The notes beneath the pieces are model-generated. The model was not told the origin of the DNA. It did not search any database and saw only the letters and a program-made list of their open reading frames with translations. Both the position numbers and the translations under genes were made by a program. Below, in pieces: positions 121 to 1,248 of a DNA stretch of 64,000 nt. Source of the DNA: an uncultured Clostridia bacterium (lineage in GTDB: Bacteria > Bacillota > Clostridia > TANB77 > CAG-465); assembly GCA_934149365.1 (NCBI GenBank), contig CAKPEI010000007.1:126-64125 (forward strand). Direction: 5' to 3'. The stretch's first letter is position 1. Each line of letters starts with the position of its first letter.

Positions 121-1248
121 ATGATAATATTAGCAGCCGCAATAATTTTATCGCTATCAAATAGTGGAATAATAGGGAAGGCAAATAAAGCAAAGACGGA
201 TACAAACATATCAAATGCAAAAGACTTAGTGGCTATGGCTCATGCAGACTGGATGCTAGATGAGGCAAAGATAAAAGAGAATGATAGCACAATAACATCA
301 TTTAGTAATTATGCAGAAAAGAAATTACAAGAGGCAGGATATAAAGTAGGAGCAGGAGAAGGAGCATATACAGTAACAGAAGATGGAGAAGTATATACAG
401 GTCTAACAGAAACAGCAAGAGCAGGAATAACAGCAGGAATAAAAATAGGAGATGAAGTAAAATATAGTGCAGTGCTAACAGCAAAAAGTTATACAACAGA
501 CGGAAGTGAAATAACATCAACAGGAGTAGCAAATAGTACGTTAGCAAAAACAGTAAAAACAAATACAAGTTATACATGGAAGTATATAGGCTTAGGAGAA
601 GATGGAAGTTTACTTATAGCACCAGATATGACAGGAACAATAGGAGAAGACTATAAATTATCATTAGGAGATAAAGGTGGTTTTTTAAATGGGCCTAAGA
701 TGTTAAATACAGTATGTGATGCACTATATACAGTAGAGGGGAAAGGAAAAGCTCAAAGTGTGAATATAGAGTTAGTGAATAAGTTATTGGAATATAATGG
801 ACCAAAGGGAATATACTTTGATGCAAATTATAATGAAGTAAAAACAGCGGAACCTAAAAAAATAGGAGAAACAGGATTAGTATCAAGTTTAGATTCAAAT
901 ACACAAACCCCAGATGGAAAAGATATAAGTGCATATTATGCAGATTATTACGGTATAAACAAAACATATCAAGCAAGTATAATAACCAAAGACACGGTAA
1001 GACAAAATCTAGTATATCAAGCAAATACATACTGGCTTGCTTCTCCGTGTGTCAGAGCTGTTTTCGGCAACAGCTCTGCGGATTTCAGTGTACGCTGCGT
1101 TAGTTCTTCTAGTGTGGACGCGTACGACGTGTTCATTTCGTTTGGCCGCGCTGATGGCAATACCTACGCTGTCCGTCCGTATGTTTCTCTAACAACTAAT
1201 ATCCAGAAAACAACGGAAAATGGAAAAACAGTATGGACTTTAATCTAG
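121..1248 (+). CDS. pilin-like N-terminal anchor / hypervariable C-terminal domain protein, paralog p1; 5' frameshifted (ATG at 54 is in another frame)
   Basis: ~85% aa identity to 24525..25718. The start codon at 54 plus MRTKVK leader reads into a different frame after a 1-nt indel in an A-run (tcaagaaagcgg versus ctaaaaggcgg). The C-terminal YWLASPCV...VRPYVSL block is conserved. Confidence 0.7.
   Translation: MIILAAAIILSLSNSGIIGKANKAKTDTNISNAKDLVAMAHADWMLDEAKIKENDSTITSFSNYAEKKLQEAGYKVGAGEGAYTVTEDGEVYTGLTETARAGITAGIKIGDEVKYSAVLTAKSYTTDGSEITSTGVANSTLAKTVKTNTSYTWKYIGLGEDGSLLIAPDMTGTIGEDYKLSLGDKGGFLNGPKMLNTVCDALYTVEGKGKAQSVNIELVNKLLEYNGPKGIYFDANYNEVKTAEPKKIGETGLVSSLDSNTQTPDGKDISAYYADYYGINKTYQASIITKDTVRQNLVYQANTYWLASPCVRAVFGNSSADFSVRCVSSSSVDAYDVFISFGRADGNTYAVRPYVSLTTNIQKTTENGKTVWTLI

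Follow-up and report, generated by a model that had tools for sequence, protein, structure and literature searches.

Adenine-poor variable cores in four dispersed paralogs of an uncultured Clostridia bacterium: probable variable regions of a diversity-generating retroelement encoded elsewhere

A 64,000-nucleotide stretch of contig CAKPEI010000007.1 from an uncultured Clostridia bacterium (hereafter the window; approximately 29% G+C, with nearly all genes on the forward strand) contains four paralogous genes, p1 to p4, that are dispersed among its housekeeping genes and that each carry, near the 3′ end, a core differing greatly from copy to copy between conserved flanks. What process makes these cores differ, and where is the machinery that carries it out? 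The answer we favor is that the cores are very probably the variable regions (VRs) of a diversity-generating retroelement (DGR), situated at the 3′ ends of dispersed paralogs for membrane-anchored surface proteins with a C-type-lectin-like domain, and that the cassette lies outside the window. An earlier reading, made from the sequence alone, had proposed a DGR with its machinery elsewhere, and this is supported by the recovery of a template repeat (TR), an Avd gene and a reverse transcriptase (RT) gene outside the window. The four genes and their putative VRs are as follows.

54..1248, forward strand: paralog p1; its open frame is 121–1248 and its protein is identical to P0009
1033..1192, forward strand: VR of p1, comprising an adenine-free 5′ anchor (1033–1053), the diversified core (1054–1173) and a 3′ end (1174–1192) resembling an initiation of mutagenic homing (IMH) element
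16573..17739, forward strand: paralog p2; its open frame is 16639–17739
17518..17683, forward strand: VR of p2, 6 nt longer than the other three
24525..25718, forward strand: paralog p3, intact, 397 aa
25503..25662, forward strand: VR of p3, placed by anchor matches and composition
38969..40153, forward strand: paralog p4, intact, 394 aa, with the exact protein on six contigs
39926..40085, forward strand: VR of p4, the closest of the four to the recovered TR

The 21-nt 5′ anchor TGGCTTGCTTCTCCGTGTGTC occurs at exactly four sites in the window, at positions 1033, 17518 (with two mismatches), 25503 and 39926, and shuffled sequences gave no match. The 3′ anchor CGTCCGTATGTTTCTCTAA is present at 1174, 17665 and 25644, and its counterpart in p4, CGCCCTGTGGTTTCTCTAA at 40067–40085, has diverged. 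The core coordinates of the sequence-only reading hold for p1, p2 and p3 but not for p4, which it had placed at 39936–40100; the recount gives 39926–40085, because the 5′ anchor lies at 39926 and the 3′ anchor ends at 40085. Its observation that the p2 core is 6 nt longer than the others is borne out.

The composition and divergence of the cores have several features. First, the cores, which are 160–166 nt long, contain 14–18% A and 22–25% C, as compared with 45% A and 12–13% C upstream in the same genes. They are rich in G+C because adenine is lacking: by simple arithmetic, removing A from the genes' own composition leaves about 60% G+C. Horizontal acquisition was considered as the cause of this richness and rejected, since the A deficit explains the excess. 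Second, within the 120 nt between the anchors of p1, p3 and p4, 57 positions vary and 63 are invariant (about 56 and 64 in the first count), and the invariant positions comprise 25 T, 19 C, 15 G and, as first counted, 4 A (6% A and about 54% G+C). At the genes' own 45% A, the probability of finding four or fewer adenines among these sites is about 9e-12. Base use at the variable positions is roughly even, with 29% A, close to the 27% estimated earlier. Third, p1 and p3 are 90–98% identical over most of the gene and about 70% identical in the core, and p4 is 50–75% identical to the others outside the core and 70–80% inside it; within the core every pair is about 65–80% identical.

If adenine-specific mutagenesis generated this pattern, the template should match the flanks and carry A wherever the cores differ, as the sequence-only reading had predicted. 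We therefore inferred a template codon by codon from the variation in the family and used its translation, an N-rich peptide, as a protein-database query. The search returned seven N-rich short open reading frames (ORFs) of 61–78 aa, with as much as 94% identity to the query. The two that were looked up are both directly 3′ of bAvd genes, and a further search with that Avd as the query gave longer contigs. Among these is L137, a 3,194-bp contig from sample ERZ4561111 (Hadza gut), a sample that also carries L005, a contig with the exact p4. L137 holds a full cassette in the same species, in the order target, MutS-like (MSL) gene, Avd, TR and RT.

L137 3–860: 3′ portion of a target gene resembling p4; its VR is at 647–805
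L137 963–1397: ORF with MutS domain I (MutS_I; MSL)
L137 1387–1731: bAvd
L137 1758–1920: TR
L137 2147–3100: RT of 317 aa, matching RVT_1 at 1.3e-15

Scans of public DNA with the anchor did not lead to a template. The 5′ anchor gave three chance matches in public genome contigs (in Paenibacillus, Acidobacteria and Lachnospiraceae) and no match in public viral contigs, and in public metagenome contigs chance matches swamped a scan with an anchor pattern of 17 specified bases, the family members that it did return (L037, L045 and L066) all being without a TR. No cassette was found around paralog P0014.

The RT that adjoins the TR is, judging from its sequence, of the DGR type. It has the motifs IGNMTSQ and YQDD, and its best match in PDB is 8ub7, a 328-aa chain named only 'Reverse transcriptase' (E 8.5e-28), which we take to be the RT of the Bordetella phage DGR; the next is a group II intron RT (9e-12). 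For the Avd protein, the precomputed Pfam record lists bAvd (PF22296), our own Pfam scan scored 36.2 bits, just below the 40-bit cut-off, and DivGenRetAVD is the best and only match in NCBIfam (4.3e-10). The TR contains 47 adenines, distributed over codon positions 1, 2 and 3 as 23, 21 and 3, so that 44 of the 47 are at the first two positions, as AAC/AAT codons. TR and VR have GCGGTTCGCCCCGTAG in common and then diverge, the TR reading GCTTCTATAAACTGAGG and the VR GTTTCTCTAAAATCTAAT, a layout such as would be expected of an IMH in the VR and an IMH* in the TR.

The predicted template thus exists, at L137 1758–1920. It was recovered independently of the window, and with it the central prediction of the sequence-only reading came true. 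Differences between each VR and the L137 TR were counted over its 47 A sites and 111 non-A sites and compared by a Fisher test.

VR of the cassette itself: 20/47 A sites, 1/111 non-A sites, p 1.5e-11
VR of p4: 24/47 A sites, 6/111 non-A sites, p 2e-10
VR of p1: 27/47 A sites, 17/111 non-A sites, p 1.9e-07
VR of p3: 29/47 A sites, 20/111 non-A sites, p 1.5e-07
VR of p2, with its 6-nt insertion removed: 25/47 A sites, 25/111 non-A sites, p 3e-04

The VRs also differ from one another in this way. p1 and p3 differ at 29/47 TR adenines and at 12/111 non-A sites (p 1.4e-10), and every pairwise set of VR differences in the window is enriched at TR adenines. The match to the template is full for p4 and only partial for p1–p3.

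The encoded proteins show the same signature. The family has 1,235 database members, all from metagenomes or metagenome-assembled genomes (MAGs), several of them on one long contig. In an alignment of 75 members, 16 positions have an entropy of 3.1–3.7 bits, and these are occupied mostly by Y, D, N, G and S, the residues encoded by NNC/NNT codons. The variable module is WLASPCVxAxFxxxxAxFxVRxVxSxxVxAxxMFxSxGxSxxxTxAVRPVVSL, and at codons with a single adenine the residue sets are those expected: M/V/L at 359, T/A/S/P at 370, and Y/C/F/S at 348 and 371.

The four window proteins have no significant match in Pfam or NCBIfam, and a Foldseek search against PDB gave none. The AlphaFold models are confident, with a pLDDT (predicted local distance difference test score) of 89.5 over the full length and 92.9 over residues 165–397, and the predicted architecture, taken from p3, is an N-terminal hydrophobic membrane helix, a long helical stalk and a C-terminal alpha/beta domain whose last beta-strands would carry the VR. 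This VR-bearing domain models as a C-type-lectin-like fold. Of the C-type-lectin/FGE-like fold suggested earlier, the C-type-lectin part stands in the model; on Pfam profiles the suggestion fails, and none of the 75 family members matches PF07603 (DUF1566) or PF03781 (FGE-sulfatase), even at E<=1. A type IV pilin or pseudopilin was also considered. Type IV prepilins have the motif G-[FMI]-[ST]-L-[IV]-E, at which they are cleaved and methylated, with Glu at +5. The N-terminus KGG-ISLIVLVITIIV resembles a prepilin leader but has Val in place of Glu at +5, and pilin profiles in Pfam and NCBIfam did not match the window proteins; we therefore rejected this assignment.

The mechanism that we propose is as follows. 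A cassette of target, MSL, Avd, TR and DGR-type RT, located outside the window, would supply the machinery. The TR RNA would be copied into cDNA with random bases placed opposite the template adenines, and the cDNA would then replace the VR, with the A-free 5′ homology TGGCTTGCTTCTCCGTGTGTC and the G+C-rich, IMH-like 3′ end GCGGTTCGCCCCGTAG-TTTCTCTAA as guides. Up to 26 codons, mostly AAC/AAT, would be rewritten while the A-free scaffold codons stay fixed. By our own count of the amino acids reachable through A-to-N changes, about 10^25 protein variants per VR are possible. We infer that the cassette acts in trans on the genes of the window, with p4 plausibly a present-day target; p1–p3 would be served by a second TR, or would carry older VRs, dispersed as the genes duplicated, that the system has ceased to service.

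Evidence that the system has acted comes from a fifth paralog, located just past the 3′ end of the window and directly after a U32 peptidase gene (L143 4599–5789; L146 5001–6191; L143 1–4494 aligns to window 59494–64000). P0053 and P0054 are alleles of this paralog. They differ at 0/343 residues outside the VR and at 15/53 inside it, and all 15 differences are at codons with adenine in the TR. At the DNA level there are 24 differences in 1.39 kb, all within VR nt 19–100 and 20 of them at TR adenines, and the surrounding 10 kb differs by about 1%. A difference confined to the VR and placed largely at adenine sites indicates that the system acted recently in the species. Gene conversion as the source of this difference is unsupported, as neither VR segment is present in any other of the 132 sampled paralogs. 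P0054 is followed by the same downstream genes (ScpB, AddB) in L144, L145, L146 and L147 and is found in three upstream contexts (before position 5001), namely MetK plus a glycosyltransferase, UvrD plus an M23 peptidase, and the U32 peptidase. The UvrD/M23 context is that upstream of paralog P0014 in L126, and these differences reflect either recombination between paralogs or chimeric assembly.

Several observations weigh against the DGR interpretation of the window's genes. First, no machinery was found in the window or just upstream of it: blastn-short with the inferred TR matched the four VRs alone in the window, a YxDD scan and Pfam searches of the neighboring ORFs gave housekeeping genes only, and the 10 kb upstream of the window has no RT, Avd or TR. 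The sequence-only reading had likewise reported no RT, Avd or template repeat in the window. Second, the link between cassette and genome consists of a shared sample, a base composition that matches as judged by reading the sequence, and the relationship of the target family, and not of a single contiguous assembly. Third, p1–p3 mismatch the TR at 15–22% of its non-A sites and p2 has the 6-nt insertion; moreover, eight identical non-A differences from the TR are common to p1–p3, mostly in the G+C-rich 3′ end, where the shared change is mostly CGT CCG TAT G replacing CGC CCC GTA G. These shared differences suggest another template, or an older one. In real DGR targets, indels and some differences at non-A sites are on record (PMC5758913). 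Fourth, the leader ATGs of p1 (54) and p2 (16573) are out of frame with the bodies of the genes, possibly representing OFF states. Fifth, strain comparisons show little change: seven contigs from other samples, with flanks diverged by 0.14–0.2%, have an identical p3 VR, one of the six contigs with the exact p4 protein has a local DNA divergence of 0.7%, p1 orthologs have 8–11 aa changes outside the VR and 0–1 inside, and family pairs differing by 2.5% or less outside the VR nearly all have identical VRs. No activity on p1–p4 is visible at the depth of strains sampled. Finally, the tract replaced between P0053 and P0054 leaves the IMH-proximal third of the VR unchanged, which is not what one would expect of a simple replacement by cDNA with its anchor at the 3′ end.

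These points bear first on a reading in which the window's VRs are relics, diversified by a DGR in the past, spread by duplication and now frozen, so that the four have ceased to be targets. We regard this as a serious possibility, if short of an even chance. In its favor, strains that differ in other places have unchanged VRs in p1, p3 and p4, both p1 and p2 have a frameshifted leader, and the non-A mismatches to the TR rise stepwise from 1/111 in the cassette's VR to 6/111 in p4, 17/111 in p1, 20/111 in p3 and 25/111 plus an indel in p2. In addition, p1–p3 depart from the TR within its G+C-rich 3′ end, the part that would determine homing if the analogy with the Bordetella DGR holds, in which the IMH has this role (PMC5758913). 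Against it, p4 has only four non-A mismatches outside the G+C-rich 3′ end, and the adenine-site replacement restricted to the VR of the fifth paralog indicates that the system is active in the species, now or recently. The differences between p1 and p3, at 29/47 TR adenines and only 12/111 non-A sites, likewise point to mutagenesis after duplication.

A second template elsewhere in the genome, carrying the 3′ end CGTCCGTATG, might instead serve p1–p3 (possibly with a longer variant for p2), with the recovered TR serving p4-type genes. This is conceivable, and we entertain it a little more tentatively. The eight non-A differences from the TR that are identical in all of p1–p3 are what it would predict; TRs of related cassettes do vary in sequence and length (P0139 has extra codons, and those of L138, L140 and L141 are unlike that of L137), and genomes with several DGR loci are documented (PMC10907252). 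Yet the TR-peptide query had the RPYVSL ending typical of p1–p3 and returned no TR of that type, and among the six recovered TRs none fits p1–p3 better than those of L137 or L135; neither the peptide search nor the comparison of the six thus yielded a second TR for p1–p3.

An origin without any retroelement, through gene conversion among paralogs with diversifying selection or through a horizontally acquired G+C-rich segment, is highly improbable: the paralogs are indeed mosaic elsewhere in the gene, and P0126 carries the VR of P0002 (i.e. one VR in different gene bodies), but the variable positions are those that an independently recovered TR predicts (Fisher p 1e-6 to 1e-10), a result that contradicts the segmental gene conversion once offered as the alternative, the invariant columns are 94% non-A within genes of 45% A, the residue spectra fit A-to-N rewriting of AAC, ATG, ACC and TAC codons, the G+C excess is what A removal would produce, and the P0053 and P0054 VR segments are absent from other sampled paralogs.

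The DGR reading, with a cassette outside the window, can also be set beside related cassettes. A cassette of the same order is present in L138, a contig of a Clostridia MAG, where it adjoins dnaA-dnaN-recF-gyrB and infC, and another in the 65-kb contig L141, which is partly syntenic with the window around CorA-RadA. In L138, L140 and L141, each TR differs from its own adjacent VR almost only at A and fits the VRs of the others poorly. In the organism of L141, a related one, the whole cassette is a few kb upstream of CorA-RadA (L141 8364–11774, as compared with window 24525–28355), and the corresponding place in the window is occupied by p3 followed by a sortase gene; the p3 locus may be a former cassette site. 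The TRs of L135 (825–987) and L137 (1758–1920), which represent two strains, are 92.6% identical, with most differences at adenines (AAC to GAC, AGC to GGC, AAT to TAT, AAC AAC to GTA GGC), as if, to judge by the sequences, the template itself had taken up A-to-N changes. In L136 (435–671), P0133, P0134, P0135 and P0137, avd and the unmutated 5′ part of a TR are joined to the 3′ end of a target gene. These short contigs include the coding tail and the downstream region, and the paralog tails differ among samples; the joins could be assembly chimeras formed through TR/VR identity, or real recombinants between TR and VR (tandem duplications or circles).

Among known systems, the closest analogue is the Treponema denticola DGR (TvpA), which has seven remote target genes (PMC5758913). 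Both are chromosomal and non-phage, with one target adjacent to the cassette and paralogous targets scattered in the genome. TvpA-type targets are lipoproteins (PMC10907252), in contrast to the present ones, which have an N-terminal hydrophobic helix and belong to no Pfam family. The arrangement is also denser, with five targets within about 66 kb (window plus L143), the host is a spore-forming gut Clostridia of about 29% G+C, and most of the VRs look static.

In having a small MutS-domain-I gene with avd, followed by TR and RT, the cassette resembles that of Legionella pneumophila (LdtA) and other MSL-plus-Avd cassettes (Wu et al. 2018). MSL is known but uncommon, present in 16 DGRs and always with avd, and one of these is the Legionella DGR (PMC5758913). 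The Clostridia cassette differs from the Legionella one in host phylum and target family. The Legionella DGR has a single adjacent lipoprotein target and is an element on a genomic island.

With the DGR of Bordetella phage BPP-1 (Mtd, Avd, TR, bRT) the system shares adenine-specific differences between TR and VR, an AAC-rich TR, a G+C-rich IMH-like 3′ end and a target modeled with the C-type-lectin fold. However, the BPP-1 DGR is carried by a phage, lacks MSL and has only one target, which adjoins it, and the targets here are cellular, multiple and remote, with no conserved inverted repeat seen directly after the VR.

Thiohalocapsa PB-PSB1 has nine DGR loci with 15 targets, some of them diversified in trans; some targets match the TR of another locus, and some VRs are static for reasons not known (PMC10907252). 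As in that organism, a cellular DGR repertoire has been expanded by duplication, but the Thiohalocapsa targets act inside the cell as sensors tied to STAND/NACHT or other conflict systems, those described here are small membrane-anchored surface proteins, and a single kind of cassette has been found here so far.

The mechanism is a known one, and it is the number of dispersed targets that is unusually high. The highest published figures that we came across are seven remote targets belonging to a single DGR (Wu et al., PMC5758913) and, for one genome, 15 targets at nine loci (PMC10907252), and large surveys, which look for VRs adjoining the RT, explicitly miss remote targets (PMC8144416). The system is unusual in its target density and probable target number, in its unannotated family, in its mix of frozen and rewritten VRs and in its many out-of-frame leaders. 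A more far-reaching proposal, which we put forward as speculative and rather doubtful, is that one or two chromosomal MSL-Avd-RT cassettes serve, or in the past gave rise to, a very extensive and scattered set of surface proteins tipped with C-type-lectin domains, with tens of paralogs per genome, VRs of mixed age and many copies OFF. It has its basis in the five paralogs within 66 kb, in the at least nine family members that have one 335-kb contig as the longest carrying contig, and in the 1,235 public members. If true, the number of targets would be well above the seven remote targets of Treponema, VR ages would span from actively rewritten to frozen, and frameshifts in the leader would keep many copies off. 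Surface variation would then be combinatorial, with the DGR building a standing library of paralogs instead of varying one gene in a population.

There are also practical consequences. Remote VRs can be recognized from the sequence alone, as A-poor scaffold codons within an otherwise A-rich gene, and the template can then be recovered by a search with the predicted template peptide. The repertoire of DGR targets gains an unannotated and abundant surface-protein family of gut Clostridia that lacks a Pfam domain. Frozen VRs lie a few tens of kb from others that were rewritten recently, which opens to study how DGR targets are turned on and off, the candidate switches being IMH drift, TR divergence and leader frameshifts.

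The leaders differ among the paralogs in sequence as well as in frame. Those of p1 and p2 (54–125 and 16573–16640) read ...AAAGCGGAATATC, as compared with ...AAAAGGCGGAATATC in p3 and p4, and because their ATGs are out of frame, the open frames of p1 and p2 begin within the membrane helix. For about 40% of the family members listed, too, the gene call starts at the internal Met. The frameshifts, which are at an A-rich part of the leader, could be phase variation or mark the genes as pseudogenes.

Downstream of the genes we searched for conserved structures. No conserved inverted repeat was found directly 3′ of the VRs in a search for conserved cruciforms; a G+C-rich inverted repeat just 3′ of the VR is present in only about a third of DGRs (PMC5758913). 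The stems that do occur are not conserved: p4 has a hairpin about 110 nt away, p3 a terminator-like structure, and p1 none.

25732..25783, forward strand: terminator-like stem-loop followed by a T run, after p3 (z -2.6)
40197..40216, forward strand: G+C-rich hairpin with an 8-bp stem and 4-nt loop, about 110 nt past the p4 VR

The second of these is not conserved in the other paralogs or in L137 and is at most a candidate for a role in homing. A noncoding element of about 85 nt is conserved 3′ of p1, p2 and p4 (1388–1470, 17757–17826 and 40253–40325), with the sequence GTTGAATGC...TTTTAGTTGACATAT...TATATTTAGTCATGTAGAC...GTCTACATGGCTATTTTT, and it ends in a hairpin with compensatory changes among the copies (z -6.4 for that of p2), followed by a T run. 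It has no match in Rfam, a search of which with the window and L137 gave two tRNAs and nothing else, and it is probably a 3′ untranslated region and terminator common to the duplicated unit.

By Pfam searches of the neighboring ORFs, the genes around p1–p4 include those for an M18 aminopeptidase, FtsW, Dus, a P-type ATPase and TetR, and further ones for LiaF, a sortase, an acyl-CoA ligase and a cardiolipin synthase. One ORF, at 23267–24262, has a strong match to HMUDK_hel (the helical domain of 5-hydroxymethyldeoxyuridine DNA kinase, E 8e-106), a family associated with the hypermodification of DNA in phages; this ORF is on the chromosome, with ABC-2 transporter genes on one side and p3 on the other.

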